This document shows positions 8,631-53,515 of a stretch of DNA of 64,000 nt, in pieces (the stretch's first letter is position 1; each line of letters starts with the position of its first letter). Both the position numbers and the translations under genes were made by a program. This stretch comes from Candidatus Vogelbacteria bacterium (GTDB taxonomy: Bacteria; Patescibacteriota; Minisyncoccia; Phycocordibacterales; XYD1-FULL-46-19). The notes beneath the pieces were generated by a model. That model was not told where the DNA came from. It saw nothing but the letters and a program-made list of their open reading frames with translations, and did no database searches. The DNA lies in NCBI GenBank assembly GCA_903864935.1, contig CAIPHT010000007.1, positions 16,293 through 80,292 on the forward strand, in the 5' to 3' direction.

Positions 8631-10967
8631 ATGTTCAAGCTATTAACAAATAAGAAAAAAATAATTTTAACATTCCTCGTTGGTGTTGGTATCTTAATCA
8701 CCCTCCCAGGTTTAGCTTTAGCCGTTGATGGACCAATTGCAACAGAGGGTTACTCGGTCTCGTTTTCTGCCGGGACTGATTTACCCACCATTCCCGCGGC
8801 CACAGGGATAATGGCTCCAAGACCTTCAACCGAAGCCGAACTCACCCAAAGATCCAATAACGACCAGACCCAAATCGATAATCTCCTCCAACTAAAAAAA
8901 CAGCTGTCCATTGCCAGCGAACAGAGTTTTCTTAAAAATGCCAAGACGGGGGCAGTGGTGGGAGCAGCAAACGGTTATACTTATGGCGGAGTAATAGGAA
9001 CAGGCATTGGAGCAGTCAGGGGCTTCTTTTTATACAATAGCCAGAGAAAAAACTCTATTGCTTTGCTAGACAAAAATGCCGATGCCAAAATTGGAGCTCT
9101 CAAAGATGACCAAGGCGCCTGTCTTGATAAAATAAGTGACATTACTAAAGAGGCCGCTCTTGCCGCGGGCGATCAAGTGGCTCTCCAGGCGGCACTAAAT
9201 AAAGCTGATCAAGCAAAACAAAAAATGGCTCAGTCTCGGGCCGCCTACAATAAAGCCGTCGCTCAATTCAAAACCGTCAACAGCCTCGCCTGTTCGGTTA
9301 ATAATCTGGGTAATTGCGTTCTAGAGGTTACCAGCTGGATAGGGAACATTGTTACTTATGTTTTTGCTCTTCTGTTATGGGCGTCAAGTGGTATTTTTGA
9401 TATTGTCGTCAATTTTTCTATCTTGAATATTGGCACTTGGTTTAAACTACCGTTAGTCGCTAGCGCCTGGCGATTAATGAGAGACTTTGCCAATATTTTC
9501 TTCGTCTTTGTCCTTCTTTATATTGCGATTGGCACAATTTTTGACTTAAAGGGTGTCGGCCAAGGACTTCAAAAGACGATAGTTGGCGTTATTGTTATTG
9601 CCCTCTTAGTTAATTTTAGCGGCTTCTTCGTCCGCGTAGTTGTTGATGCTTCTAATATCATCGCCTATGAATTCTATTCGGGGATAAAAAAGGGGGACTC
9701 CACCTTTTCTTTAGGGACGAACCTAGTCCAAAAAATGGATTTGGGTGCTCGTTTTATTGATCCCAGCTCGTTAGAAGATGCCAAAGCACAGGCCGGGGGG
9801 GTCTTTAATAACTCCCCAATACCAGAGGAAGGGGCTGTCGACAAGCTTAGTTTCCTTAGTATTATTGCGGGAACCTTCGGTAACATTTTAATTATCTTGG
9901 CCACTTCTTTTGTTTTACTCACTGCCGCCATTCTATTTATCATCAGGACAATTACTTTATTGTTTATCTATATTATCGCTCCTTTTGCCTTCGTCTCCAA
10001 GATTATCCCAATAAAGAGTTTCAACAAGTTTGATAAATGGTCTGACACCTTAATCAAACAATCATTCTTTGCTCCGGCTTTTCTTATCCCACTTTATCTG
10101 GTCTTCTTAATCCTTGGCCCGACTGGTATCTCTCATCTGGCCTCCACCGCCAAAGGGACAGAGGGTTGGGCCTTTATTGGACAGGACTCCCTCCTTCTAG
10201 TAATGGCTGACGTTTTCATCCTTGGCTTGATTATTGCCTGCATCTTTATCGCTCAATCTTTAAGCGCTATTGGTTTGGGCTTTGCTACCGGTGTTGCTGG
10301 CAAGGCCAATGCCTTAGGCGTTAGAAATATAGGGAGATTTGTTGGCCGACCGGTGGCAACCGTCGCTGGAAAACTAGGAGGCAATAGACTTATTACTGAG
10401 GCTAAATGGGCAGCATCAAAGACCAGGGTCACCAAAGTTTGGAATTCTGCCTCAATGAAAGAAATTAGGGAGACAAAATTCGGCAAGAAGCTAGGCCAAG
10501 CTATAAAAAATCCAATGCTCTCAGCCAATGACGCTCTTGGTTCAGCCGCTGGTTTGGCAGGGGTAAAAAGTTTCAATGTCTTAGGCAGTTCGGCCGAATC
10601 AAGAAAAGATGCCGCCAAAGCAGAAAAGGAGAAAAAAGAAGAAGACGAAAAAAGAAAGAAAGAAGACAGAGAAAAAGCACTAAAAACCGCCAGTACAGCT
10701 GAAGCCTTAACGATACTTGGTGGTATGACTGACGGCGAGATCAAAGATTTACCAGCTGATATTATTACTTTACCAGCTATTTCTCTAAATCTAGAAAATG
10801 ACCAACTTGTAGCAATCAACAAGGCCGGAAAATTAACCAAAGACCATAAGAAGGCCGTTAAACAAATAATCATGGGAATCGCACCAAAAGGAATACCTGG
10901 CACGATGGGAACACCAGAAGGACAAATCTTCATGATGACGGGAGCGGGAGCGTCCTGGCCGAGATAA
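8631..10967 (+). CDS. polytopic membrane protein, TrbL/VirB6-like T4SS channel component
   Basis: Signal peptide plus a ~200-aa periplasmic coiled-coil region, then at least 6 TM helices (residues ~230-540), then a Lys/Glu-rich cytoplasmic tail (KAEKEKKEEDEKRKKEDREK). Architecture and operon position fit TrbL/VirB6. Start 2 nt after the previous stop. Confidence 0.5.
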   Translation: MFKLLTNKKKIILTFLVGVGILITLPGLALAVDGPIATEGYSVSFSAGTDLPTIPAATGIMAPRPSTEAELTQRSNNDQTQIDNLLQLKKQLSIASEQSFLKNAKTGAVVGAANGYTYGGVIGTGIGAVRGFFLYNSQRKNSIALLDKNADAKIGALKDDQGACLDKISDITKEAALAAGDQVALQAALNKADQAKQKMAQSRAAYNKAVAQFKTVNSLACSVNNLGNCVLEVTSWIGNIVTYVFALLLWASSGIFDIVVNFSILNIGTWFKLPLVASAWRLMRDFANIFFVFVLLYIAIGTIFDLKGVGQGLQKTIVGVIVIALLVNFSGFFVRVVVDASNIIAYEFYSGIKKGDSTFSLGTNLVQKMDLGARFIDPSSLEDAKAQAGGVFNNSPIPEEGAVDKLSFLSIIAGTFGNILIILATSFVLLTAAILFIIRTITLLFIYIIAPFAFVSKIIPIKSFNKFDKWSDTLIKQSFFAPAFLIPLYLVFLILGPTGISHLASTAKGTEGWAFIGQDSLLLVMADVFILGLIIACIFIAQSLSAIGLGFATGVAGKANALGVRNIGRFVGRPVATVAGKLGGNRLITEAKWAASKTRVTKVWNSASMKEIRETKFGKKLGQAIKNPMLSANDALGSAAGLAGVKSFNVLGSSAESRKDAAKAEKEKKEEDEKRKKEDREKALKTASTAEALTILGGMTDGEIKDLPADIITLPAISLNLENDQLVAINKAGKLTKDHKKAVKQIIMGIAPKGIPGTMGTPEGQIFMMTGAGASWPR

Positions 10968-17433: not shown

Positions 17434-18178
17434 GGGCCCTTAGGACCGCGTCCTGGTCCTTAATCTTCTTAATAACCACCACCTCATAGATGGCGGAGAA
17501 AACGTTACTGGTGACCCAATAAAGGGAGATGGCCGCGGGTAAAGTAAAGGCGATAACCGCCGTCATCACCGGCATAGCATAACGCATTTGGAAATCCATA
17601 CTCTTGGCTAAATCCTGGCCAAAAGAGACCTCTTTTTTGTCTGAAGACTTATTTTTTTCTCGCTTGGGTAGAGAAAGTGTAACCTGGAGATATTGAGTTA
17701 CCCCAGTTAAAAAGGCGAGAGCATAATTATGACTAACCGTTAATTTAACAAAACCCAAGAAAATTGTGTTGATATGATTGGGGATAGTAATAAAAGAGTA
17801 AACAAGGTTGATGTCAATAGTAAAACTCTGGCGAAAGACATAAAAAAGGGAAATAATAATAGGAATTTGGATAAGCAAAACCAAAAAGCTGCTAAAGGGG
17901 TTAATCTTCTCTTTTTTATATAATTCCATCGTCAGGCGAGACTGTTCGGGTAAATTATCTTTGTTTTGCTCTTTTATCGCCTTCAATTCACCCTCGACAG
18001 CCTTCATTTTTATTTGAGTCATTACCGAGGTCTTATAGAGAGGGAAAATGACAATTTTAACTAGAATAGTAAGAAGAATAATGGCCAAACCAAGATCTGC
18101 CCCAGGGAGAATCGCCGTGAGCCAAACCAGAAGATTGTAGAGGGGGATAAAAACAATTATTTTGAAAAAATTAATCAT
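17417..18178 (-). CDS. yidC: membrane protein insertase YidC (short form)
   Basis: Motifs ILLTILVKIVIFPL and MQIKMKAVEGELKAIKEQ, five TM segments, conserved position downstream of rnpA. Confidence 0.85.
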   Translation of the reverse strand: MINFFKIIVFIPLYNLLVWLTAILPGADLGLAIILLTILVKIVIFPLYKTSVMTQIKMKAVEGELKAIKEQNKDNLPEQSRLTMELYKKEKINPFSSFLVLLIQIPIIISLFYVFRQSFTIDINLVYSFITIPNHINTIFLGFVKLTVSHNYALAFLTGVTQYLQVTLSLPKREKNKSSDKKEVSFGQDLAKSMDFQMRYAMPVMTAVIAFTLPAAISLYWVTSNVFSAIYEVVVIKKIKDQDAVLRAPKASN

Positions 18179-18195
18179 ATTTTGCTATTCTAACA

Positions 18196-18552
18196 CTATT
18201 TTAAAATTTTAGCTGTTCTAATTAAAGCCAAGACCTCTTCCTCAAACTGTTTGAATTCAAGTCTAGAAAGATCCTCTTTTACTTGGATGATAATATCTGA
18301 ATTATTTACCACTTCGGGCCAGATTTTTTCTAAAATAGCGTGGAGACGCCTCTTGATCAAATGGCGACGGGCCGAGAGGGGAACAACCTTATTCCCAATA
18401 ACCACCGCCACCCTCGGACTTTGGCCATAATTCTCCTCTGTGGATAACCTGTTATGAACTCGAATATTAAGACTAGGGGACGAGAAAACCCTGTTTTGTT
18501 TCAAAACAAGGGGTAAAAGCTCTTTATTTATACGGTATTTAACCGGAAGCAT
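18196..18552 (-). CDS. rnpA: ribonuclease P protein component
   Basis: RNR-like basic motif ARRHLIKRRL; 118 aa; immediately downstream of rpmH. Confidence 0.8.
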   Translation of the reverse strand: MLPVKYRINKELLPLVLKQNRVFSSPSLNIRVHNRLSTEENYGQSPRVAVVIGNKVVPLSARRHLIKRRLHAILEKIWPEVVNNSDIIIQVKEDLSRLEFKQFEEEVLALIRTAKILK

Positions 18553-18555
18553 TAA

Positions 18556-18690
18556 TTAGACAGCCAATTTATGGCGACCTTTGAGACGGCGTCGGGCCAA
18601 AACCTTAGCCCCGGTTGGGGACTTAGTTCGAGCCAAAAAACCATGGGTAGTGGCTCGTTTCTTCTTTTTAGGATTATACGTAAAAGACAT
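18556..18690 (-). CDS. rpmH: 50S ribosomal protein L34
   Basis: Not in the ORF track (44 aa). Minus-strand translation is [44 protein letters not shown], the canonical L34 sequence. Sits 3 nt upstream of rnpA. Confidence 0.85.
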
Positions 18691-18820
18691 GGGGATAGTA
18701 TACCAGAAAAAAAGCTTTTAGCAATATCCACAAGTAATCCACCACATATAAACAGAATAGGTAAGATTGCTAGTTTTTCCACAAGGCCTATAATTGAAGC
18801 AAGTAAGATAATTATTTTAT
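18691..18820. promoter_or_regulatory. dnaA upstream region with DnaA-box-like 9-mers
   Basis: aTATCCACA at 18725..18733 and TTTTCCACA at ~18776..18784 (consensus TTATCCACA); divergent rpmH/dnaA promoter region. Confidence 0.4.
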
Positions 18821-20197
18821 ATGGAAGGAATTTTAGACAACAAGAAACTCTGGGAAAATGCCCTTAATGAGATCGAGTTGTCTATCTCTAAAGCTAACTT
18901 CGGCACCTGGTTTAAAAACACCCACATTATTAAATGTGATGACGGAATTATTCAATTAGCTGTTCCCAATGCTTTTGTTCGTGACTGGTTAGCTAATAAG
19001 TATCACAAGTTCATCTTGAAAGCTCTCCGCGATATGGAAGATGGGGTAAGATCTATCGAATACGTAATTAGCCGCCCCGACGACCAATCATCTAGTAATA
19101 AGGCTAAGATTGGTGTCAACAAAGACAACCTTCTTAGTAATGACCTTGGTTTAAAGGATCTCTATATTAACAAAGAGAGTAATCTTAATCCTAAATATGA
19201 TTTTAGCACCTTCATTGTTGGATCCTTTAATGATGTGGCCTATGCCGCTGGTCAAGCGGTAATTAAGAATCCAGGGACTGTTCATAATCCACTCTTTATT
19301 TATGGTGGAACAGGTTTGGGTAAGACCCACCTTCTCCAAGCAATTGGCAACCAGATTAAAAAGAATAATCCTAATAAATCAGTTTATTATATTAGTTCGG
19401 AGAACTTCATTGTGGAACTTATTAGTAATATTCAGAACAATAAAGGTAATAGCTTTAAGGAAAAGTTCCGCAAATATGACCTTCTTATTATTGATGATGT
19501 CCAATTTTTCTCTAACAAAGAGCATTCTCAAGAAGAACTCTTCCATTTATTCAATCATTATTACGATAACAATAAACAAATTATCTTTTCTTCAGATAAA
19601 CCCCCTAAATTTATTCCTAACCTTGAGGAGAGACTGCGTTCACGCTTCGAAGGGGGGATTATTATTGATATTTCCAAGCCTGATTATGAATCACGCTTAG
19701 CTATCCTAAGAAATAAGAATAAAACCTTAGAAATAAAGATTCCTGATGAGGTTCTCGAGTATCTTGCTTCTGTTATTCAAGACAGTATTAGAGAACTAGA
19801 GGGTTCTCTTAACTCTATTATTCTCCAATCTCAGGCTAAAAATAAAGAGATTACCTTACAAGAAGTGAAGGGGATTATTAAGAATAATATCAAACCTCAG
19901 AAAACTATTTCTATTAAAGACGTTATGCATGTTGTGGCTGATTACTATAATATTGAAGAGGCAATTCTCTATGAGAAAACTCGTCGTAAAGAGGTGGTTA
20001 AACCACGACAAATTATTATGTATATATTAAGAGAAGACTTTAATACTTCTTACCCTTATATTGGCCAAAAATTAGGTGGGAGAGACCACACAACAGTTAT
20101 TCACGCTTACGAAAAAATAAAAGAAGAAGTAAAAAATAATTCAGCCCTTGTCCAAGAGTTAGAACAAATTAGATCACTTCTTTACGCTAATAATTAA
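18821..20197 (+). CDS. dnaA: chromosomal replication initiator protein DnaA
   Basis: AAA+ Walker A GGTGLGKTHLLQAIGN, sensor motifs, C-terminal DNA-binding domain (TVIHAYEKI); 458 aa. Confidence 0.95.
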   Translation: MEGILDNKKLWENALNEIELSISKANFGTWFKNTHIIKCDDGIIQLAVPNAFVRDWLANKYHKFILKALRDMEDGVRSIEYVISRPDDQSSSNKAKIGVNKDNLLSNDLGLKDLYINKESNLNPKYDFSTFIVGSFNDVAYAAGQAVIKNPGTVHNPLFIYGGTGLGKTHLLQAIGNQIKKNNPNKSVYYISSENFIVELISNIQNNKGNSFKEKFRKYDLLIIDDVQFFSNKEHSQEELFHLFNHYYDNNKQIIFSSDKPPKFIPNLEERLRSRFEGGIIIDISKPDYESRLAILRNKNKTLEIKIPDEVLEYLASVIQDSIRELEGSLNSIILQSQAKNKEITLQEVKGIIKNNIKPQKTISIKDVMHVVADYYNIEEAILYEKTRRKEVVKPRQIIMYILREDFNTSYPYIGQKLGGRDHTTVIHAYEKIKEEVKNNSALVQELEQIRSLLYANN

Positions 20198-21537: not shown

Positions 21538-21789
21538 ATGGATAACTTCAAAGATCTCCTTAAACTTTATAGTCAAAAATTAAATAGTACTCAATTAATT
21601 ATTGACGAAATTCTAGCTGTTATAAATAAAGAAACCGGTCTAAATCTTAATAAAACAAATTTAGTAACCAGAGATGGTATTGCTTATCTTAAAGTTAAAC
21701 CAAAACAAAAATTAGAGATTATCCTACATAAAGACAGGATAATCTCTAATTTTAAAGAAGAAAAAATTCTAATTACTGACCTAAAGTAA
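21538..21789 (+). CDS. small protein, possibly DUF721/DciA-like
   Basis: 83 aa directly after dnaN; segment TRDGIAYLKVKPKQKLEIILHKDRII loosely follows the DUF721 pattern. Weak. Confidence 0.3.
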   Translation: MDNFKDLLKLYSQKLNSTQLIIDEILAVINKETGLNLNKTNLVTRDGIAYLKVKPKQKLEIILHKDRIISNFKEEKILITDLK

Positions 21790-24226: not shown

Positions 24227-24278
24227 TTTTCTATCCTAGCACATTTTGCGTAAAAAGATAAGTGTGGTGTTATTAATA

Positions 24279-24318
24279 AAAAGACCAGGCTGACTTTATT
24301 TAGTCAGCCTGGTCTTTT
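24279..24318. terminator. bidirectional rho-independent terminator
   Basis: Perfect 15-bp stem AAAGACCAGGCTGAC/GTCAGCCTGGTCTTT with an 8-nt loop, flanked by A-run and T-run. Confidence 0.6.
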
Positions 24319-24345
24319 TATTGTGAGACGATTTTAAAATTCTTC

Positions 24346-32119: not shown

Positions 32120-32779
32120 ATGAAGAACCTTGTTATAGTCGTTGTTTTTGTTGTCATGTTGGCGTCGGTTGCTTTTGCCCAGTCTGGGCAGAGCGTGACC
32201 TTTCACCAGCCCAACGGCGGGACGTCCACCTGGACCCCGCCGGCGGCGCAGATGGTCAAGACCCCGTGCTACGGCACGGTGCCGAGAGCCAACGGACCGG
32301 TCGTCCGTCAGCTTCAGTCGCAGTGGCCTTCTCAGGTCTCCGCCCCGATGCCGCCGGTTGTGGGTGGGACAACATCGGCTGATCCGAGCGGTGTAGCCTC
32401 CCTTCGGGGTGGCATAGTTGCCGCGCGCCCTGTTCCTTCGGGTAACCCCGAGGTCGACAGAGACAACAACCAGACGGACCTCCAATGGGGTCAGTTGGCG
32501 GCTGAGCGTGAGCGCAGCAACCAGCAGGCTGATCTGGAGAGAGTCCAGATCGAAAGGCAATACGACATCCAACGCCGTGAAGAGTCTCGCCAGACGGTTC
32601 AGACTTTGGCCAATGTCATCCAGAATTGGCAGGATGGACAGGCTCGGCGCGAAGACTCGAAGGCCTCGCGGCGAATTGAGGCAAACTGGCAGGCTCAGAA
32701 CGCCGCTCAGCAAGCGGCAGACCGCGCGAGCCAGTTGGCCCAAACGGCCATGTCAGCGGCCGCCGCGGCCAGGCACTAA
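32120..32779 (+). CDS. secreted Gln/Arg-rich protein encoded in a GC-rich island
   Basis: Signal peptide MKNLVIVVVFVVMLASVAFA-QS. GC-rich coding region that produces long shadow ORFs in other frames. Own promoter and terminator. Confidence 0.55.
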   Translation: MKNLVIVVVFVVMLASVAFAQSGQSVTFHQPNGGTSTWTPPAAQMVKTPCYGTVPRANGPVVRQLQSQWPSQVSAPMPPVVGGTTSADPSGVASLRGGIVAARPVPSGNPEVDRDNNQTDLQWGQLAAERERSNQQADLERVQIERQYDIQRREESRQTVQTLANVIQNWQDGQARREDSKASRRIEANWQAQNAAQQAADRASQLAQTAMSAAAAARH

Positions 32780-32795: not shown

Positions 32796-32840
32796 GAGCC
32801 CCTGGGAGAGAGTCACTCTCCCAGGGGCTTTTTCTTTTGT
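32796..32840 (+). terminator. rho-independent terminator
   Basis: GCCCCTGGGAGAG-AGTCACT-CTCTCCCAGGGGC followed by TTTTTCTTTTG. Confidence 0.65.
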
Positions 32841-32878
32841 CCTCATTTTGTTACGCTTATCGTTGTAGAATAAATAAT

Positions 32879-33367
32879 ATGAAAGAGACAAAAATTATTT
32901 CTAAATCACTCGAAGATACTTATAATGTTGCCAAGCTTTTTCTTTCTAACCTAAAACCTAAAAGTTTACCCCGTGGCGGAGCTTTACGGGGCTCCCAAGC
33001 TGCTGTTGTTTTACTCGAAGGGGACTTAGGAGGAGGTAAGACCACGTTTACTCAAGCCTTGGCCCGCGAACTTGGGGTGAAGAATTATCTTACGAGTCCG
33101 ACCTTTGTTTTAATGAAAAGCTACAAGATTTCTCCCGAAGTCACTGAGAGGCTTCGCCTCTCAGTTAAGAATCTTATTCATATTGATGCTTATCGCTTAA
33201 ATTCTGGCGCTGATTTGTTGAATCTTGGCTGGGCTGAGCTCGTCGCTAATCCCGCCCACTTAATTGTGTTAGAATGGCCAGAGAAGGTGGCCGACCTCTT
33301 CGACGGTTTGGAGCACAAAATCAAGTTCAAATTTATTGATGAACAAAAAAGAGAAATAATTTTATAA
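32879..33367 (+). CDS. tsaE: tRNA threonylcarbamoyladenosine biosynthesis protein TsaE
   Basis: P-loop LEGDLGGGKTTFTQALAREL, SPTFVLMKSY, HIDAYRL; start set at MKETKI (ATG 32879). Confidence 0.8.
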   Translation: MKETKIISKSLEDTYNVAKLFLSNLKPKSLPRGGALRGSQAAVVLLEGDLGGGKTTFTQALARELGVKNYLTSPTFVLMKSYKISPEVTERLRLSVKNLIHIDAYRLNSGADLLNLGWAELVANPAHLIVLEWPEKVADLFDGLEHKIKFKFIDEQKREIIL

Positions 33368-33972: not shown

Positions 33973-34614
33973 ATGGATTACATGCTCAGCAAAGCGCTCC
34001 GCGAATTCAATTCCGGACCGCTTCATCAACTTCTAGTGAATCTTGGTGGGGAAGAGGGCGCAATGTGGGAAGCAGAGCTCAAAAAGTTCAATCGCAAGGA
34101 AACCTGCTGGCCCAAGACGAACCCCTACCTGCGCAAGCTCGCGGACGGCACGCTTCCGGCGACCGACGGCCAGCGAACGATGGTCAGGGCGAAGGACATG
34201 TTTCCCGGCTACTTCGGGAAAGATTACGCTAACTGGGGAACGGATGTCCCTGGCAAAGCGACGCCGGAAATGCCATTCCAAGTGTATGAGCTGGTCATGG
34301 ACGGTAAATTCGCGCAGATCTTCGGCGGATTCGCCCGTCCACTCGGCGAGTTGTGCTGGGAACAAGACAAGATCCTCGCGTTTGTGGAGGGTCACCCCGA
34401 ACGGCTCCACCCGCAGGGCTACGGGACCTTCTTCTTGTTCAAGGTTAAGTTCAAGGAGAACACCGAGAACAAGCGAGAGGAGTTCTTCGTTGCCAACGTC
34501 TACCGGGACGGTGGCCAGCTCAAGGCGCACGTGTTCCGGTTCTCGTTCGACAGCGTCTGGCCTGCCGGGTATCGCTATCGCTTCGTGGTCCCGCAACTGG
34601 CCTCAGCCGTTTAG
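33973..34614 (+). CDS. GC-rich cassette protein, paralog family member 1
   Basis: RBS AAGGAAAA. Shares VNxLGGEE N-terminal motif and C-terminal FFVANVYRDGGQLKAHVFRFSFDSVWPAGYRY motif with 39012..39605, 56425..56793, 59273..59920 and 53722..53901. Confidence 0.6.
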   Translation: MDYMLSKALREFNSGPLHQLLVNLGGEEGAMWEAELKKFNRKETCWPKTNPYLRKLADGTLPATDGQRTMVRAKDMFPGYFGKDYANWGTDVPGKATPEMPFQVYELVMDGKFAQIFGGFARPLGELCWEQDKILAFVEGHPERLHPQGYGTFFLFKVKFKENTENKREEFFVANVYRDGGQLKAHVFRFSFDSVWPAGYRYRFVVPQLASAV

Positions 34615-34708: not shown

Positions 34709-37210
34709 ATGGCCAAAAAGAATTATAAAACCAAAATCGTCCTCATTGACGCCCATGCTATCTTGCATCGGGCTTATCATGCTTTGCCGGATTTCTCTTC
34801 GAGTAAGGGTGAGCCGACGGGCGGGCTCTACGGCTTGGCCTCGATGATGCTTCGGATTATTGCTGACCTTAAGCCAGATTATATTTTTGCTTGTTATGAC
34901 CGCGCTGAGCCAACCTTCCGTAAGCAAGTTTATGATGAATATAAGGCGGGGCGCGCTAAGGCTGAGCCAGAGTTGGTGGCGCAGATTATTCGTTCGCGCG
35001 ATATCTTCACCGCGCTTCATATACCAATCTACGATCTGGCCGGTTTTGAGGCGGATGATATTATTGGGACGATAGTTGAGAAATTGTCAAAAGGAGTTCG
35101 AGGAGAGACCTCGGGCTCACTCGAGGACTCACCTCGAACGCGACAGGCCTCCTCGGCTCAGATAATAATTGCCTCGGGTGATATGGACACCCTCCAGCTG
35201 GTTGATGACGATAGGGTTGTTGTCTTCACACTTAAGAAAGGTCTCAATGATACTGTCGTCTATGATGAGAAGATGGTGCGCGAGCGTTATGGCTTCGAAC
35301 CCAAATTCCTGATTGATTATAAAGGTTTAAGAGGTGACCCGTCTGATAATATTATTGGTGTGGAGGGTATCGGAGAGAAAACGGCGACAACTTTGATTCA
35401 AGAGTTTGGCACAATTGAAGATATTTATAAACAGATTAAAAAGGATGAGCAGGTTTTGCTTGATCGAGGTGTTAAAGCTCGAATTCTGGAGATTTTAAAG
35501 AATAGCGAAGAAGAGGCGATTTTTTCTAAAACCTTGGCAACGATCAGGCGTGATGCTGGTATTGATTTTAAATTACCTAAGGAGACTTGGGCCGAGACTT
35601 TTGAGACGACCAAGGCCGAGGGCTTATTCAATGATTTGGAGTTTAGGACTTTGATTGGGAGGTTGAAGAAACTTGAGATCGGGCCTCGCCCCACGGGCGA
35701 AGTTGGACTTCAGGGCTCATCGAAGTCCAACTTCTCACGACCGGGCTCGGCCGAGGGAGGTGAGCCGGCTGTGGGAAGTCCGACTTCAAGTGAGCCCGAA
35801 GTCGTACTTCACTCACCGGCTGAGGAACTTGAAATTAAACAACTTGCCATCGCCCTCTGGCTTATCAATTCAGACACTACCAACCCCAAGCTTGAAGATA
35901 TTTTCGAATACACCCGAACCGAAGACTTGGCCAAGGCCAAAGAAAAATTGTTGGCTGACTTAGAGAAGCTTGGCCTAACTAAAATTTACCAAGAAGTGGA
36001 ACTGCCTCTCATCCCAATACTTGAAGAGGCTCAGGCACGGGGGATTAAGGTGGATAAGAAATTATTGGCAGATTTGTCTGTTGATTATCATGCCAAGCTC
36101 AAAGATTTGGAGAAAAAGATTTATGAGCTGGCTGGCTCTGAATTCAACATTAATTCGCCCAAGCAACTAGGAGAGATTCTTTTTACCAAGCTTAATTTGT
36201 CGGTGAAGGGTCTTAAGAAGACAGCGGGAGGCAGTCAATCTACTCGCGAATCGGAGATTGCCAAGCTGAAGGATGTCCACCCAATTATCAACGAGATTCT
36301 GGCCTATCGCGAATTGCAGAAGTTGCTCTCAACTTATATTGATAATCTCCCTAAGCTCTTAGACGAGGACGATATTTTGCACCCGACCCTCAACCAGACG
36401 GGTACCACGACCGGGCGTATGTCCTCAACTAACCCTAACGTGCAGAATATCCCGACGCGGGGTGAGCAAGGGGCAGCGATTAGGACAGCCTTCGTCGCGC
36501 GCGAGGGGTATGAATTAATGGCTTTTGACTATTCTCAGATTGAGCTGCGAGTTTTGGCTGCCCTCTCACAAGATCCAGAATTAATTAAGATTTTTAACGA
36601 AGGTAAGGACATCCACACTTCGGTTGCGTCACGCGTTTTTGGAGTTATTGAGGGAGATGTGACTAAAGAGATGAGGCGACGGGCAAAGGTGATTAATTTT
36701 GGCATTATCTATGGGATGGGGGTTAATGCGCTTAAGGCCAATCTTGGGACAACTCGTGATGAAGCCCAAGAATTCATGGATAATTATTTTGCCTCTTTCC
36801 CCACTATCAAGAAATACTTCGAATTGGTGATTGAGGGAGCCAGAGACAGGGGATACACCGAGACTCTCTTTGGTCGTCGTCGTTATTTGCCGGCTCTTCA
36901 CTCTCAATTGCCTCAAATTAAGGCCAGCGCTGAGCGTATGGCGATGAATGCCCCACTTCAGGGGACGGCAGCCGATATTATTAAGCTGGCCATGATTCGG
37001 GCTGATAAAGATATCAAGGAGGCTGGTTTGTCAGACAAAGCCTTCTTGTTGCTCCAGATCCACGATGAACTTATTTTTGAAGTAAAAGAGGGACTTAGTG
37101 CTAAAGTTATGCCTTTAATTAAGAAATCCATGGAGGAGGTGATTAAGATGAATGTTCCCCTAGAGGTCTCATCGGCTCGTGGTCCTCGCTGGGGGGAACT
37201 TGAGAAATAA
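34709..37210 (+). CDS. polA: DNA polymerase I (5'-3' exonuclease plus polymerase; degenerate 3'-5' exo region)
   Basis: FEN domain (IVLIDAHAILHRAYHALPD), motif A DYSQIELR, motif B RRRAKVINFGIIYGMG, motif C LLQIHDELIFE. 833 aa. Low-complexity GC-rich linker regions carry palindromic insertions. Confidence 0.95.
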   Translation: MAKKNYKTKIVLIDAHAILHRAYHALPDFSSSKGEPTGGLYGLASMMLRIIADLKPDYIFACYDRAEPTFRKQVYDEYKAGRAKAEPELVAQIIRSRDIFTALHIPIYDLAGFEADDIIGTIVEKLSKGVRGETSGSLEDSPRTRQASSAQIIIASGDMDTLQLVDDDRVVVFTLKKGLNDTVVYDEKMVRERYGFEPKFLIDYKGLRGDPSDNIIGVEGIGEKTATTLIQEFGTIEDIYKQIKKDEQVLLDRGVKARILEILKNSEEEAIFSKTLATIRRDAGIDFKLPKETWAETFETTKAEGLFNDLEFRTLIGRLKKLEIGPRPTGEVGLQGSSKSNFSRPGSAEGGEPAVGSPTSSEPEVVLHSPAEELEIKQLAIALWLINSDTTNPKLEDIFEYTRTEDLAKAKEKLLADLEKLGLTKIYQEVELPLIPILEEAQARGIKVDKKLLADLSVDYHAKLKDLEKKIYELAGSEFNINSPKQLGEILFTKLNLSVKGLKKTAGGSQSTRESEIAKLKDVHPIINEILAYRELQKLLSTYIDNLPKLLDEDDILHPTLNQTGTTTGRMSSTNPNVQNIPTRGEQGAAIRTAFVAREGYELMAFDYSQIELRVLAALSQDPELIKIFNEGKDIHTSVASRVFGVIEGDVTKEMRRRAKVINFGIIYGMGVNALKANLGTTRDEAQEFMDNYFASFPTIKKYFELVIEGARDRGYTETLFGRRRYLPALHSQLPQIKASAERMAMNAPLQGTAADIIKLAMIRADKDIKEAGLSDKAFLLLQIHDELIFEVKEGLSAKVMPLIKKSMEEVIKMNVPLEVSSARGPRWGELEK

Positions 37211-38880: not shown

Positions 38881-39011
38881 GTAAGTAGAAGTTTGAAATA
38901 GAAATAGCGTTTTTTGTGAGGCAAACCGTGTTTGTCTTGCTGTCTTGTTTGGCCTCTTGCCTATCAGGTGAGAGGAACCCCCGACTATCAGTCGGGAGAA
39001 AGGCTACGGCC

Positions 39012-39605
39012 ATGTCAAAGTATGGACACAGAACAGGAGACTGGTGTGAGGCGATTGTGAACAAGCTTGGAGGAGAAGAAGCGGCTGACGCTTTCCTTCG
39101 GGACGAGTTGGTCATCTCCAAACGGCCCGCCGATGCCATCCTCGAGTTCGTCGGCACGGCCAACATCGCCGCCACGACAACGAAGTTCGTCGCCAAGGAA
39201 AAGTTCAAGCTGAAGAAGGATGGGGGCATCTGCTCCTATATCGGCGACAACTTCAAGGACTGGTTCGGCGGCAAAGAGGAGGATCCGCTTGCCGAAACCA
39301 CGCTCCGCTATGCCAAACTCCGCAAGTCGTCCGTCGACACCCCGATTGTCGCCGAGCTTGGCGGTGAAGCAAAGGCCGAGACCACGTTGACGGAAGTCTT
39401 TGGTCTTATGTCCAAACAGGCCAAGGCCGAGACTGGCGTTCTCCTCACCAATGGCTGGGCGAACATCTTCTATGTTCGCGATCAGAATGGTGTGTTGCGC
39501 GCGGTCTTCGTCCACTGGGACGACGGCGGCTGGAGCGTGCACGCGGGCGAGCTCGGCTACCCGGATACGTGGCTCGATGGCTACCAGGTGTTCTCTCGCA
39601 ATTAG
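39012..39605 (+). CDS. GC-rich cassette protein, paralog family member 2
   Basis: RBS GGGAGAAAGG 9 nt upstream; MSKYGHRTGDWCEAIVNKLGGEEAAD...IFYVRDQNGVLRAVFVHWDDGGWSVHAGELGY. Start set at the internal Met of track ORF 38916..39605. Confidence 0.6.
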   Translation: MSKYGHRTGDWCEAIVNKLGGEEAADAFLRDELVISKRPADAILEFVGTANIAATTTKFVAKEKFKLKKDGGICSYIGDNFKDWFGGKEEDPLAETTLRYAKLRKSSVDTPIVAELGGEAKAETTLTEVFGLMSKQAKAETGVLLTNGWANIFYVRDQNGVLRAVFVHWDDGGWSVHAGELGYPDTWLDGYQVFSRN

Positions 39606-43767: not shown

Positions 43768-44673
43768 TTACTTTTGGCAACTGGCACAAAAGTGAGTACC
43801 CCTGCCGGCGTGGCGGATCTTTTGGATCGGGCGACCACAGACCTTGCAAGGCTCGCCTTCGCGACCATAGACATTAAGATGGGGGACGAAGCCGCCCCTG
43901 GTGCCATCGCTCCGGCGGTAATTGCGAGAGGAAGTGCCTTTCTTTTGGATTGAGAGCTTGAGAACTTTAATAATATTGTCTCGCAAATTTTTTATCTCCG
44001 CTGGCTTGAGGGTTGAAACTTTTCTCGTTGGGAGAAATTTAGACAAGAAGCAGGCTTCATCGGCATAGATATTCCCAATCCCAGCAATCAGGGTTTGATC
44101 AAGAAGTATTTGTTTGATTGTTCTATTTTTATATTTCTTAAATATCTCAGCAAGAAGGCTGGGAGTGAAGATGGGGGAGAGCGGTTCGGGGCCGATATTC
44201 TCGACGAGTTTGCCTATTTGCTTATCATCCGCTAGTCTTACCCAACCAAATTTGCGCAGGTCATTGAAGTAGAGTTTAGACTTATCAGTGAATTCAAAAA
44301 TGAGGCGAGTGTATTTGGAGGGTTGCTTCTCGAGCATTTGGTCATCGGGATGTCCTCCAAGGACCGCTTGCCCGAGGACAGTCCTTGAACTGCCCCTAAG
44401 GACTGTCCTCGGGCAAGCTGGAACAAAAATTAATTGCCCTGTCATCTTGAGATGCACCGCGAGCGCCAAGTCACCCTCAAAATCAATAAAAAGCATTTTG
44501 GCCCTGCGCCTTACTTCTTTTATTTTTTTCCCTTTTATTTGTTTGAGAAATTCGTTGGGTGAGAAAGGACCCACCGTTTTAGCCCAAAGAACCTGAGTGT
44601 CTTTAATCTCCAGACCAATCAGGACTTTATTTAGTTCGCGTTTTAGAGTCTCAACTTCTGGTAGTTCGGGCAT
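43768..44673 (-). CDS. mutM: formamidopyrimidine-DNA glycosylase (Fpg/MutM)
   Basis: MPELPEVE catalytic N-terminus, H2TH, C-terminal zinc finger CKVCGRPIQ...CASCQ. Contains an in-frame palindromic insertion (RTVL repeat). Confidence 0.9.
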   Translation of the reverse strand: MPELPEVETLKRELNKVLIGLEIKDTQVLWAKTVGPFSPNEFLKQIKGKKIKEVRRRAKMLFIDFEGDLALAVHLKMTGQLIFVPACPRTVLRGSSRTVLGQAVLGGHPDDQMLEKQPSKYTRLIFEFTDKSKLYFNDLRKFGWVRLADDKQIGKLVENIGPEPLSPIFTPSLLAEIFKKYKNRTIKQILLDQTLIAGIGNIYADEACFLSKFLPTRKVSTLKPAEIKNLRDNIIKVLKLSIQKKGTSSRNYRRSDGTRGGFVPHLNVYGREGEPCKVCGRPIQKIRHAGRGTHFCASCQK

Positions 44674-44686
44674 AAAACCCAATATA

Positions 44687-46021
44687 CTATGAATTTAGAA
44701 TTTTCTGCAATTCTTCTTTAACGACGATGCGATCATCCCAAGGGGAAGTAATTCCATTGACGGTGATGGATTGCTCAGCGCCTTTGCCAGTGATTATCAC
44801 CACGTCACCTGAGCGGGCGAGGGAGAGGCACTTATTGATGCCGGCGCGGCGGTCTTCGATTACAAATAAATTTTCATTTCTGGTTTTGCCATTAACTTCG
44901 GCCACTTTGGCAATATCCTCGGCAATCTCGGTCGGGCTGTCATCATAAGGGTCAACATTACTTACCACTACATAGTCGGCCCGTTTGCCCACAATCTCGC
45001 CCATTAGGGCGCGCTTAGCTTTGTCGCGACCACCACCCTCGGCTCCTAAGTTCACAATAATCCGCCGGCTGGCGGAACCCGTGTCATTTTCTCGAATCAT
45101 CTCAGCTGTCTCCATTGCTCGCGTCATGCTCTCTTTCTCGTGGGCATAGTCCACAATTACGGTGAAGTCTTGCCCTAAGTTTATCTTTTCCATTCGGCCG
45201 GGGATTAAGCTTAATTTGGCTAAGCCATTTTTAATTTGATCATTCGAGAGCCCGGCTTCTTGGCCAACAATAATGGCTGGTAAAGCGTTGTAGATATTAA
45301 AAGCGCCAACGATATTAATTTTGTATTTCTCATTATTAACTTCGAATTCTACCCCTTCTTCGTTGCCGGAGATATTGGTGGCGATAAAAGCAGCATCTGT
45401 TTCTAAGCCGTATGTAATTTTTTTATCGGCGGGGAAGCTTAAGAAGAAATCTTTGTTTGGGTCGTCATTATTAATAACCGAAAGTGATTTAATCTCACGA
45501 TTTCCTATTATTTTTTTGTGGTTTTTAAGGGTAGCAAAGAGTTCACCTTTTTTACCCTTATATTCCTCGAAGCTGTTGTTGTGAGAGGCGAGATGTTCTG
45601 GCGTGAGGTTGGTAAATATAACCCAATCATAATTAATGCCAATGTGGCGGAATTGTTTGATACCCTCTGAGGTGGTCTCGACAATACAATATTTACATCC
45701 AGCATCGAGCATTTGCTTGAAGAACTTTTGCAGGACGAAGCGCCCAGGCATGGTCATGTGGTATTTGTTTAGAATCTCTTTGTCTCCAATTCTTATGTTT
45801 GCTGTCCCTGTCAGCCCAGTTTTTAGGCCGTTCTCATTAAGAACTGACCAGAGGAAATTGCCGGCGGAGGTCTTGCCCTTGGTGCCTGTTATCCCAATAA
45901 CAATCATCTTGTTTGTGGGATGACCATAATAAAAGGCGGCTAAGTGGGAGAGGGCCCAGTGGTAACGAAGGAAAAGTTTTTCTGGTAAGAACCTTTTAAT
46001 TATTCTTTTTAATTTCTTCAT
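44687..46021 (-). CDS. Mur-ligase-family protein (P-loop near N-terminus; MurT/FPGS/CapB-like order rather than MurC-F)
   Basis: IGITGTKGKTS P-loop at residue ~43, Mur ligase middle and C domains, VIVDYAHE; adjacent to FemAB. Confidence 0.6.
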   Translation of the reverse strand: MKKLKRIIKRFLPEKLFLRYHWALSHLAAFYYGHPTNKMIVIGITGTKGKTSAGNFLWSVLNENGLKTGLTGTANIRIGDKEILNKYHMTMPGRFVLQKFFKQMLDAGCKYCIVETTSEGIKQFRHIGINYDWVIFTNLTPEHLASHNNSFEEYKGKKGELFATLKNHKKIIGNREIKSLSVINNDDPNKDFFLSFPADKKITYGLETDAAFIATNISGNEEGVEFEVNNEKYKINIVGAFNIYNALPAIIVGQEAGLSNDQIKNGLAKLSLIPGRMEKINLGQDFTVIVDYAHEKESMTRAMETAEMIRENDTGSASRRIIVNLGAEGGGRDKAKRALMGEIVGKRADYVVVSNVDPYDDSPTEIAEDIAKVAEVNGKTRNENLFVIEDRRAGINKCLSLARSGDVVIITGKGAEQSITVNGITSPWDDRIVVKEELQKILNS

Positions 46022-47932: not shown

Positions 47933-47944
47933 TCTCTAATAATC

Positions 47945-47973
47945 AAAAAACCGCCCCAAGGGGCGGTTTTTTG
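47945..47973 (+). terminator. rho-independent terminator after rpsT
   Basis: AAAAAACCGCCCC-AA-GGGGCGGTTTTTT. Confidence 0.7.
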
Positions 47974-47992
47974 ATTAGCGGAATTTTGTTTT

Positions 47993-53456: not shown

Positions 53457-53463
53457 TTAAACA

Positions 53464-53491
53464 AAAAACTCGCCAATTGGCGAGTTTTTTG
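53464..53491 (+). terminator. rho-independent terminator after rplS
   Basis: AAAAAACTCGCC-AATT-GGCGAGTTTTTT. Confidence 0.7.
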
Positions 53492-53515
53492 TTATAGTCA
53501 GAGTGTTCAAAATTT

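Follow-up and report, generated by a model that had tools for sequence, protein, structure and literature searches.

In-frame palindromic insertions in polA and mutM and their dispersed, probably RPE-like repeat family in Paceibacteria (CPR)

Four GC-rich hairpins lie within the coding sequences of polA and mutM in a 64-kb stretch of DNA from a MAG (the window, meaning the whole stretch analysed). The nearest relatives of the window by name are Candidatus Paceibacterota or Patescibacteria MAGs. Are these hairpins insertions, and if so, what kind of element are they and how do they spread? A sequence-only reading had claimed three GC-rich palindromes in polA, one with perfect 13-bp arms at 35699..35734, all three translated in frame, and a similar element in mutM. 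Each of these claims held, with the palindromes at the positions given and in frame in both genes, and the peptides exactly as quoted.

Hairpins within polA and mutM

The host genes and their hairpins are as follows.

34709..37210, + strand: polA, host gene, 833 aa (ORF and translation)
35093..35146, + strand: inserted block of polA site 1, 54 nt, 18 codons, GVRGETSGSLEDSPRTRQ, missing from the closest orthologs
35096..35139, unstranded: polA hairpin 1 (site 1), arms 35096-35113 and 35122-35139, folding z = -4.0
35678..35809, + strand: PolA interdomain linker, residues 324-367, pLDDT 27-46, predicted disordered
35694..35739, unstranded: polA hairpin 2 (site 2, class B), GAAGTTGGACTTC-AGGGCTCATC-GAAGTCCAACTTC, z = -5.5
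35741..35768, unstranded: GC-rich spacer between polA hairpins 2 and 3, containing GGGCTC and GTGAGCC motifs
35770..35815, unstranded: polA hairpin 3 (site 3, class B, canonical), GAAGTCCGACTTC-AAGTGAGCCC-GAAGTCGTACTTC, z = -2.4
43768..44682, - strand: mutM (fpg), host gene, Pfam Fapy_DNA_glyco, H2TH and zf-FPG
44366..44418, unstranded: mutM hairpin, arms 44366-44386 and 44398-44418, 21 nt and perfect, loop 11, z = -10.4

Hairpin significance was determined by DNA folding z-scores against shuffles. At site 1, the 18-nt arms had a complementarity of 89% and enclosed an 8-nt loop. They hold the mini-palindromes CGAGGAGAGACCTCG and CGAGGACTCACCTCG, and the loop region is GGGCTCACT(C). The site-2 arms (35694-35711 and 35722-35739) contain a perfect 13-nt core (35699-35711 and 35722-35734), and the site-3 arms (35770-35787 and 35798-35815) a 12/13 core (35775-35787 and 35798-35810), both with a loop of 10 nt. 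The C/A stem mismatch of hairpin 3 is the commonest form in class B copies elsewhere, and its identical 36-mer is present in other genes. In mutM, the inserted block covers 18 codons (44371-44424), and the arms, AAGGACTGTCCTC, hold mini-palindromes too. A model that had not been trained on the mutM copy (R1) scored this hairpin at 24.4 bits (E = 3e-5), and mutM-type arms, CCCGAGGACAGTCCTT, form hairpins again in the related loci L135 and L147.

Two properties had been overlooked by the sequence-only reading: every arm of 13-16 nt forms a mini-palindrome of its own (GAAGTnnnACTTC, CGAGGnnnnnCCTCG), and all three polA copies have the 10-nt loop GGGCTCAYYY in common, site 3 in the opposite orientation. 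The motif GAAGTYSRACTTC occurred four times, versus 0.26 expected, and none of 100 shuffles reached this number. The site-1 and mutM hairpins are related to sites 2 and 3 in a diverged or mosaic form and are not copies of them. The spacer between hairpins 2 and 3 is possibly a decayed element, but its fold was not significant (z = -0.6; 47 of 200 shuffles equally good). Within the 64-kb window, the family was limited to polA and mutM, with four copies, three of which share a gene, and no intergenic copy. Such sparse copies may be old inherited residents and not a sign of current activity.

All polA and mutM inserts preserve the reading frame. PolA has a short linker joining its 5'-nuclease domain to the polymerase domain, and no 3'-5' exonuclease domain (precomputed Pfam matches PF02739, PF01367 and PF00476, no others). 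Its catalytic motifs DYSQIELR, RRRAKVINFGIIYG and QIHDE were all intact in the ortholog alignment. In the predicted structure, the hairpins are positioned at one domain boundary and in one loop, and the AlphaFold pLDDT fell below 50 precisely over the insert-encoded peptides (PolA residues 130-147 and 324-367). The interdomain linker is nearly all hairpin-element sequence, and it aligned as a highly variable patchwork among orthologs.

Smaller in-frame hairpins were observed in tsaE (32837..33367, TsaE by Pfam).

32969..32991, unstranded: weak tsaE in-frame insert (LPRGGAL), CCCCGTGG..TTTACGGGG, fold alone not significant, z = -1.6
33141..33167, unstranded: small tsaE hairpin, in frame, CACTGAGAGGC-TTC-GCCTCTCAGT, z = -5.0

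The second of these belongs to a different sequence family from the polA and mutM elements; it is found in L084 and L085, and not in L081 or L002. The hairpin type of the weaker insert is also nested in a class B loop of L085 polA.

Filled and empty alleles in orthologs

Comparison with orthologs showed that the polA and mutM palindromes are real insertions. An alignment with orthologs lacking the inserts had been proposed as a check, and it held: PolA of L081 and L002 (82-83% identical) is cleanly without the 54-nt site-1 block and keeps the residues K-E-K there, and MutM of L081 is cleanly without the 54 nt inserted in the window mutM. Ortholog identity for these clean presence/absence pairs was 80-83%. 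A 36-nt version of the site-1 block is present in L001 (codon alignment). Relatives with as little as about 58% identity share this K-E-K in their empty site-1 alleles; filled alleles have lost it. Because empty alleles keep this broadly conserved K-E-K, the filled state is derived. Filling of the site was patchy on the PolA tree. Further filled/empty pairs were found for ComEC, UvrC, NifS, LeuRS and EF-related genes.

The empty alleles of mutM and polA site 1 contain neither arm, so that neither was copied from adjoining host sequence. Outer stems derived from the target were ruled out as well, as they are missing from empty alleles and lie inside the inserted block. No direct target-site duplication was seen in the filled/empty comparisons of polA, mutM and other genes, with noisy alignments for distant pairs.

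These alleles bear on the reading that the inserts are ancestral low-complexity linkers of PolA, palindromic by accident and deleted in some lineages. In its favour, the nuclease-polymerase linker is variable in all relatives. Against it stand the distribution of K-E-K among empty and filled alleles, since excision from filled site-1 alleles, which have lost K-E-K, cannot regenerate the empty state, and the presence of the same sequences in unrelated genes. The ancestral-linker reading is contradicted for site 1 and mutM, and is otherwise all but excluded.

A dispersed family and its relation to known repeats

Metagenomes were scanned with one core 20-mer as the query, and 123 copies were recovered from 112 loci, at no more than three per 10 kb and several per contig. 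A repeat search for the arm motifs, as suggested by the sequence-only reading, thus found them dispersed in unrelated genes of related metagenomic genomes, yet within the window only in polA and mutM. The palindromic elements measure roughly 36-56 bp, with a core of 36-46 bp, and the inserted blocks 21-75 nt. Copies sorted into discrete arm classes (A, B and C). Counting copies inside versus outside coding sequences, as had also been suggested, placed 26 of the 39 class B copies and all 10 class C copies inside ORFs of at least 150 codons, and class A mainly in intergenic regions. The arms of class C are imperfect, and the same mismatches recur in copies from different genes, from which it follows that this class was copied as a unit. 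Arms of GAAGTYSRACTTC with the same loop occurred in about 50 copies in unrelated genes of these genomes.

Copies in ORFs fell into 22 host protein clusters. About three of these were short-stem chance matches, and at least 15 were recognisable housekeeping genes; hosts include Dus, MiaA, ComEC, RNase R, enolase, LeuRS, UvrC, RNase HII, HolB and kinases. The recurring encoded peptides include VRSPTSSEPEVVLRT and VRSTTSGSLEVGLLT. Two benign reading frames accounted for 32 of 39 copies, and the two stop-containing frames for none, the latter being guaranteed by the selection of copies. Those outside long ORFs were intergenic, and no gene-breaking copy was found. The family is thus dispersed, with frames preserved and inserts at predicted-disordered segments.

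Could each palindrome be a separate local product of replication template switching or quasi-palindrome correction, without mobility and without a family? Stepwise palindrome growth is suggested by arms that are mini-palindromes, by mutM of L084, which has one mini-palindrome only where the window and L085 have the full two-arm hairpin, and by outer stems that vary among copies. Against this, identical cores of 36-46 nt, conserved stem mismatches included, were found in about 20 unrelated genes of many genomes, and both arms are new versus the empty allele in mutM and at polA site 1. Local origin is contradicted as the sole explanation and is very unlikely; a later lengthening of the outer stems might nonetheless be due to it.

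An artefact of assembly or sequencing is all but excluded. The window comes from a MAG, and chimeric reads can create palindromes, but the same inserts were recovered in independent NCBI, ENA, JGI and Logan assemblies (one protein cluster n = 6; one contig in several samples).

A further possibility is that the hairpins are selected functional structures, such as mRNA hairpins pausing the ribosome where domains meet, elements for stability or termination, or palindromes bound by a protein. Several observations agree with this: the polA copies occupy a domain boundary and a protein loop; the hairpin loop is conserved; and pairing is kept despite sequence turnover (87.8% of stem positions versus 63% in shuffles), with outer stem pairs that vary among copies yet remain paired. 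Intergenic class A and class B copies are often terminator-like, at gene ends with A/T runs. On the other side, both orientations were found in genes at about equal frequency (23 versus 16), and orthologous copies were inverted in place, which means that an RNA loop is not conserved. Very close relatives, whose proteins are otherwise conserved, had the copies only patchily, and copies within coding sequences are without the T-run that a terminator needs. An Rfam scan of the window and 15 element-rich loci found tRNAs and a tmRNA only, and no matching family. We consider the functional reading unlikely. A role of class A as a 5'-UTR/RBS element, an idea taken from an adjoining polypyrimidine tract, was rejected, since 33 of 53 copies had no downstream ORF start.

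DNA-uptake-sequence-like motifs, as in Neisseria, would form inverted pairs enriched in genome-maintenance genes. The hosts polA and mutM in the window, and UvrC, RNase HII, HolB and ComEC elsewhere, fit this reading, and CPR bacteria depend on DNA uptake. A DUS/USS is a single short motif at very high density, whereas merely four copies were present in the 64 kb of the window, none of them intergenic, the arms differ among copies of one genome, and hosts also comprise enolase, LeuRS, MiaA, Dus and kinases. This leaves the uptake reading with almost no room. In viral contigs, a looser core pattern gave 18 matches with stems of just 5-7 bp, which is chance level; the family is not phage-borne. 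A generic hairpin census (stem of at least 10, loop 7-13) was non-discriminating, as unrelated DNA already contains about 13 such hairpins in every 100 kb.

RPEs are about 100-150 bp long, form ten defined families, are restricted to Rickettsia and have no known transposase (PMC10969869). The CPR elements are like them in being dispersed palindromic repeats, in frame in unrelated housekeeping genes, encoding a recurring peptide at fold-compatible positions, and without a known transposase. They differ in their smaller size (core 36-46 bp), in a simple stem-loop with a 10-nt loop, and in nested mini-palindromes, in-place inversion and loop-nested insertions. The resemblance to RPEs noticed by the sequence-only reading held in function only. 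Membership of an RPE family failed on size and host lineage (similarity to RPE consensus sequences was not tested).

REP/BIME sequences share the size range (20-40 bp), the many-copy, GC-rich imperfect palindromes, a stem mismatch conserved in many copies and, for one class, an intergenic location often at gene ends. REPs are extragenic by definition, whereas two of the three CPR classes lie mostly within genes. The 5' GTAG or CGTC tetranucleotide that REPs carry as a conserved tag is not present in the flank consensus of the CPR elements. REPs are mobilised by RAYT (TnpA-REP) Y1 transposases; for the CPR elements, none was found in the window and loci searched.

MITEs with in-frame fusions (ERIC, Correia, Nezha, QMITE) and terminator-like repeats (SPRITE) are non-autonomous, short and sometimes genic or terminators (PMC10969869). 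A MITE has a non-palindromic body flanked by terminal inverted repeats, with direct duplications of the target site, whereas the CPR element is one entire hairpin with no visible duplication. The polA and mutM copies, internal and without a T-run, do not qualify as intrinsic terminators, in contrast to some intergenic copies of classes A and B. In contrast to TIGR arrays, the CPR elements are solitary hairpins. Like the CPR elements, organellar hairpins, such as yeast mitochondrial GC clusters and Allomyces double-hairpin elements, are very short and GC-rich, lie in AT-richer reduced genomes, sometimes within coding sequence, and have loops that flip through inverted arms. Repetitive hairpin-forming elements are known from sponge mitochondria (PMC2800124). 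Chloroplast DNA has minute hairpin-associated inversions. The organellar elements differ in their hosts, organelles versus free bacterial genomes, and their sequences are unrelated. In a literature search, no account of palindromic repeats or MITEs from CPR/Patescibacteria came up.

Spread and turnover of the elements

The elements are likely a REP-sized, RPE-like selfish family of palindromic repeats, spread across the genomes of one Paceibacteria (CPR) lineage and surviving only in permissive loops and linkers; their mobility, translation and neutrality or selfishness are inferred. Copies would land genome-wide. In genes, those surviving selection would have a multiple-of-three length, no stop in the used frame, and a position in a surface loop or interdomain linker. 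They would be transcribed and, as we infer, translated into short disordered peptides rich in Gly, Ser, Thr, Pro and Glu, and the host enzyme would stay functional.

A mobilising enzyme was not identified. Pfam searches of 10 neighbouring ORFs in the window found no transposase and no RAYT. In 2.2 Mb of loci, tblastn with an IS608 TnpA query found one IS200-family tnpA; a negative from this query is weak. The gene is in L179, with a class A copy 1.2 kb away, and its end hairpins are unrelated to the elements. Its Y1 transposase scored 109 bits with NF033573 and 20 bits with the RAYT model, versus a cut-off of 80 (loci only, no whole genomes). No link of this gene to the elements was found, as it is an ordinary IS200 that fails the RAYT model.

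Orthologs revealed a turnover of resident copies. In-place inversion was found in Dus, MiaA, a sugar kinase and polA site 2, where the ortholog of hairpin 2 in L001 is inverted. Swapped loops were also seen, as were hairpins nested within a loop (four independent cases). One polA codon position held at least five different element types among lineages (relatives down to 53% identity), for which random insertion and selection are a poor account. Under the preferred reading of an RPE-like family, resident copies would go on evolving in the DNA as inverted repeats, by in-place inversion and by exchange or replacement of loops and arms. Their loops would take in further small hairpins, and a colonised site would remain occupied while its content changes.

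A bolder reading is that spread and self-renewal need no dedicated transposase and proceed by DNA-hairpin chemistry, with fold-back (hairpin-primed) synthesis and hairpin-loop cleavage and repair, the single-stranded loop of a resident being the preferred landing site for the next element. We regard this as improbable. It would explain the nested mini-palindromes, the differing outer stems, the four loop-nested insertions and the at least five element types at one polA position, and it could perhaps be favoured where PolA is without a proofreading domain. If true, the mechanism would amount to a self-perpetuating 'hairpin landing pad', constantly remodelling the surface loops of essential CPR proteins.

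For the likely RPE-like family, the significance lies in the following. In-frame palindromic colonisation of essential genes has hitherto been regarded as an oddity almost peculiar to Rickettsia. A much smaller, REP-sized counterpart in CPR would mean that protein-loop evolution took this route independently in another reduced-genome lineage. The family would explain why CPR housekeeping proteins vary in length and contain 'low-complexity inserts', and the inserts bear on annotation, alignment, trimming of phylogenomic markers and structure prediction. Close relatives differ in whether an insert is present, in its orientation and in its loop type, so that the inserts offer strain-level markers. 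The family would also be a tractable case for the movement of hairpin DNA without an evident transposase.

Hairpin insertions in polA and mutM

The window has a G+C content of 43%, and the nearest relatives of its PolA are named Candidatus Paceibacterota or Patescibacteria MAGs. Based on these names, we assign it to a CPR bacterium. The sequence-only reading had reported three in-frame palindromes in polA and a similar element in mutM; all were confirmed at their positions, and all lie in frame. The host genes and hairpins are listed below, with z-scores for single-strand DNA folding against shuffles.

34709..37210: polA, 833 aa, with Pfam 5'-nuclease and polymerase domains only
35096-35139: polA site 1, loop on the + strand, z = -4.0
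35694-35739: polA site 2, loop on the + strand, z = -5.5
35770-35815: polA site 3, loop on the - strand, z = -2.4
43768..44682 (-): mutM
44366-44418: mutM hairpin, perfect 21-nt arms, z = -10.4

Every arm was a small palindrome by itself (GAAGTnnnACTTC, CGAGGnnnnnCCTCG or AAGGACnGTCCTC), and the loop GGGCTCAYYY was common to all three polA hairpins. The arm motif occurred 4 times, versus 0.26 expected. A covariance model trained on 48 copies found only the three polA copies and the mutM copy in the window.

Alignment with orthologs, as the same reading had proposed for polA and mutM, revealed empty alleles. Six syntenic relatives were compared (metagenome loci L081, L002, L001, L083, L084 and L085). 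When indels were scanned one ortholog at a time against L081 and L002 (protein identity 70-97%), hairpins explained the larger window-specific in-frame indels: 54 nt at polA site 1, one at polA site 2, 54 nt in mutM with two new arms, and two short indels in tsaE. By codon alignment, neither L081 nor L002 has site 1, and L001 has a 36-nt version of it. Across 33 aligned PolA sequences, empty site-1 alleles shared K-E-K down to ~58% identity and filled alleles had lost it, so the filled state is derived. Filled alleles were scattered over the PolA tree, and filled/empty pairs were also found in ComEC, UvrC, NifS and LeuRS. The outer stems were part of the inserted block, not target-derived, and no direct target-site duplication was visible in the filled/empty comparisons. 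The polA and mutM hairpins are insertions.

Most of the 120 listed PolA homologs have ~780-790 aa, making the window protein ~45 residues longer. Its AlphaFold model had a mean pLDDT of 81, with values <50 only at residues 1-4, 78-83, 130-147 and 324-367. Residues 130-147, a loop leading from helix 115-131 to strand 150-155, and 324-367, the nuclease-polymerase interdomain linker, are exactly the hairpin-encoded peptides. Throughout the clade, PolA lacks the 3'-5' exonuclease domain, and the junction between its 5'-nuclease and polymerase domains spans ~45-60 residues.

Other features were noted in the window. A small palindrome, TCCGCCAGCCGGCGGA (45056-45085), coincides with a 4-codon insert (SASR) in a Mur ligase gene relative to L081. 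Four perfect 17-21 bp, AT-flanked intergenic hairpins (24275-24322, 21708-21753, 47940-47977, 53460-53493) have no sequence kinship with the polA/mutM family and resemble ordinary intrinsic terminators, in part bidirectional. Three GC-rich ORFs (32120-32779, 33973-34614, 38916-39605; local G+C 0.5-0.7 versus 0.43 for the window) had no Pfam match and were overlapped by long antisense ORFs. L081 lacks the ones between tsaE and polA; there, tsaE directly abuts polA. The cargo of the tsaE-polA gap differs from relative to relative, e.g. a PemK toxin in L085, and the gap looks like a variable island.

A dispersed family with discrete arm classes

The search for related arms elsewhere was run as a metagenome scan with ACYTYAAGTGAGCCCRARGT, the site-3 loop plus inner stem, leaving the arms free. 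It returned 123 matches in 112 loci, confirming dispersal, with up to three copies per 10 kb at some loci and several contigs matched repeatedly. The free arms sorted into discrete classes, which differed in location relative to coding sequence.

Arm classes among the scan matches
Class A: arms CCCGCCAGACCTY; 65 copies; mostly intergenic
Class B: arms GAAGTCSKACTTC, as in polA sites 2 and 3; 39 copies; 26 in ORFs >=150 codons
Class C: arms GTGAGAAATGCGACTTC..GAAGTCGTTTTTCGCAC; 10 copies; all in long ORFs

Class C arms are imperfect, and their mismatches are conserved among copies in different genes, which argues that this class was copied as a unit. Hairpins with mutM-type arms recurred in L135 and L147, and in L085 a related hairpin occupied the insertion site in mutM. 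Since polA site 1 of the window joins mutM-like arms to a class B loop, the hairpin superfamily is mosaic. The covariance model also detected members in more distant relatives, among them polA site 1 of L007 (PolA 53% identical).

At that position in L007, the self-palindromic GGTCGGACCTC occurs three times as direct copies (10359-10397). In L084, the mutM insertion site (gene at 18102-18974) holds a single mini-palindrome, CCAAGGGTAGTCCTTGG, which could be an element that has lost one half or a forerunner of the two-arm hairpin. Class A elements have the layout CCCGCCAGACCTY-AAGTGAGCCC-RAGGTSTGGCGGG, e.g. L131 5635-5682, L147 914-961 and L002 6717-6752 (within L104-L215), with a polypyrimidine tract of 12-18 nt always on one constant side. 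Some resemble bidirectional terminators, with an A-run on one side and a T-run on the other, and the L002 copy lies in a divergent promoter region.

Inversion, nesting and host genes

Stem pairing reached 87.8%, versus 63% in shuffles; the outermost pairs varied from copy to copy, with pairing retained. Elements had opposite orientations at orthologous sites in Dus (L127 vs L108), MiaA (L116 vs L176 and L169), a sugar kinase (L190 vs L135) and polA site 2 (window vs L001). In the Dus, MiaA and kinase orthologs, in-place inversion turns the peptide TSSEPEV into TSGSLEV. For the asymmetric class C, the whole element has demonstrably been inverted. The same arms also carried a second type of loop, CGCGTAGCC (L083 16016-16058 and 11023-11065), and its peptides, ...TSRSQV... 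and ...ASGYARNDF..., recurred in relatives' PolA linkers. Four times independently, the 10-nt loop of a resident element had received another small hairpin; those in coding hosts measured 21 or 33 nt and kept the frame.

Hairpins nested in loops
L085 10930-11008: polA
L081 10987-11065: polA
L002 3636-3711: class A copy
L187: RNase R, VRNATSSEPARPAGGPEVVFRT

Copies inside ORFs numbered 44, drawn from classes B and C and from matches without a class; they fell into 22 host protein clusters, ~3 of which were chance short-stem matches in unrelated organisms. By eye, we take the other hosts to include Dus, MiaA, ComEC (two copies), RNase R, PolA, enolase, LeuRS, UvrC (three inserts), RNase HII, NifS, HemK, HolB, an AlkD-like protein, a PfkB kinase and a 2-hydroxyacid dehydrogenase. 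After removal of duplicates, 23 intragenic copies were sense and 16 antisense. A stop codon interrupts two of the six reading frames of the element consensus; counting was limited to copies in open frames, so these frames could not be counted. Among open-frame copies, 32/39 gave VRSPTSSEPEVVLRT or VRSTTSGSLEVGLLT. Class B copies outside long ORFs were intergenic, frequently where two genes converge, and none interrupted a gene out of frame. This pattern of frame, orientation and location is consistent with translation, itself inferred, together with purifying selection. It disfavours two alternatives: a strand-specific function at the RNA level, and splicing-out of the hairpins.

Mode of spread and relation to known repeats

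No transposase was found among the ORFs neighbouring the elements in the window. An IS200-family gene in L179 was rejected as mobiliser, being unrelated to the elements: it is an ordinary IS200/IS605-family Y1 transposase gene (1642-2073) with its own flanking hairpins, adjoining a HicA/HicB-like pair, and a class A element lies 1.2 kb away. Many class B copies share a conserved stem mismatch. It might permit strand discrimination by a single-strand-specific enzyme, a hint rather than evidence.

One polA codon position was independently occupied by at least five element types, and RNase R and mutM each carried different element classes at the same site. Random insertion is a poor explanation for such repeated occupation. 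Together with the nested insertions, same-site occupation suggests that resident hairpin loops may serve as landing pads, which is our inference.

The proposed likeness to Rickettsia palindromic elements (RPE) held in part: the elements are functional equivalents of RPE and fail membership on size and host. They are REP-sized, but differ from REP in location and tag, and from MITEs in architecture. The literature searched, which excluded subscription journals, contained no account of these elements from CPR bacteria; they seem undescribed there, although absence from the literature is no proof. The best-supported reading is a selfish, non-autonomous family of palindromic repeats, which we consider likely, with mobility and selfishness inferred; selection would leave only copies at permissive, frame-preserving positions.
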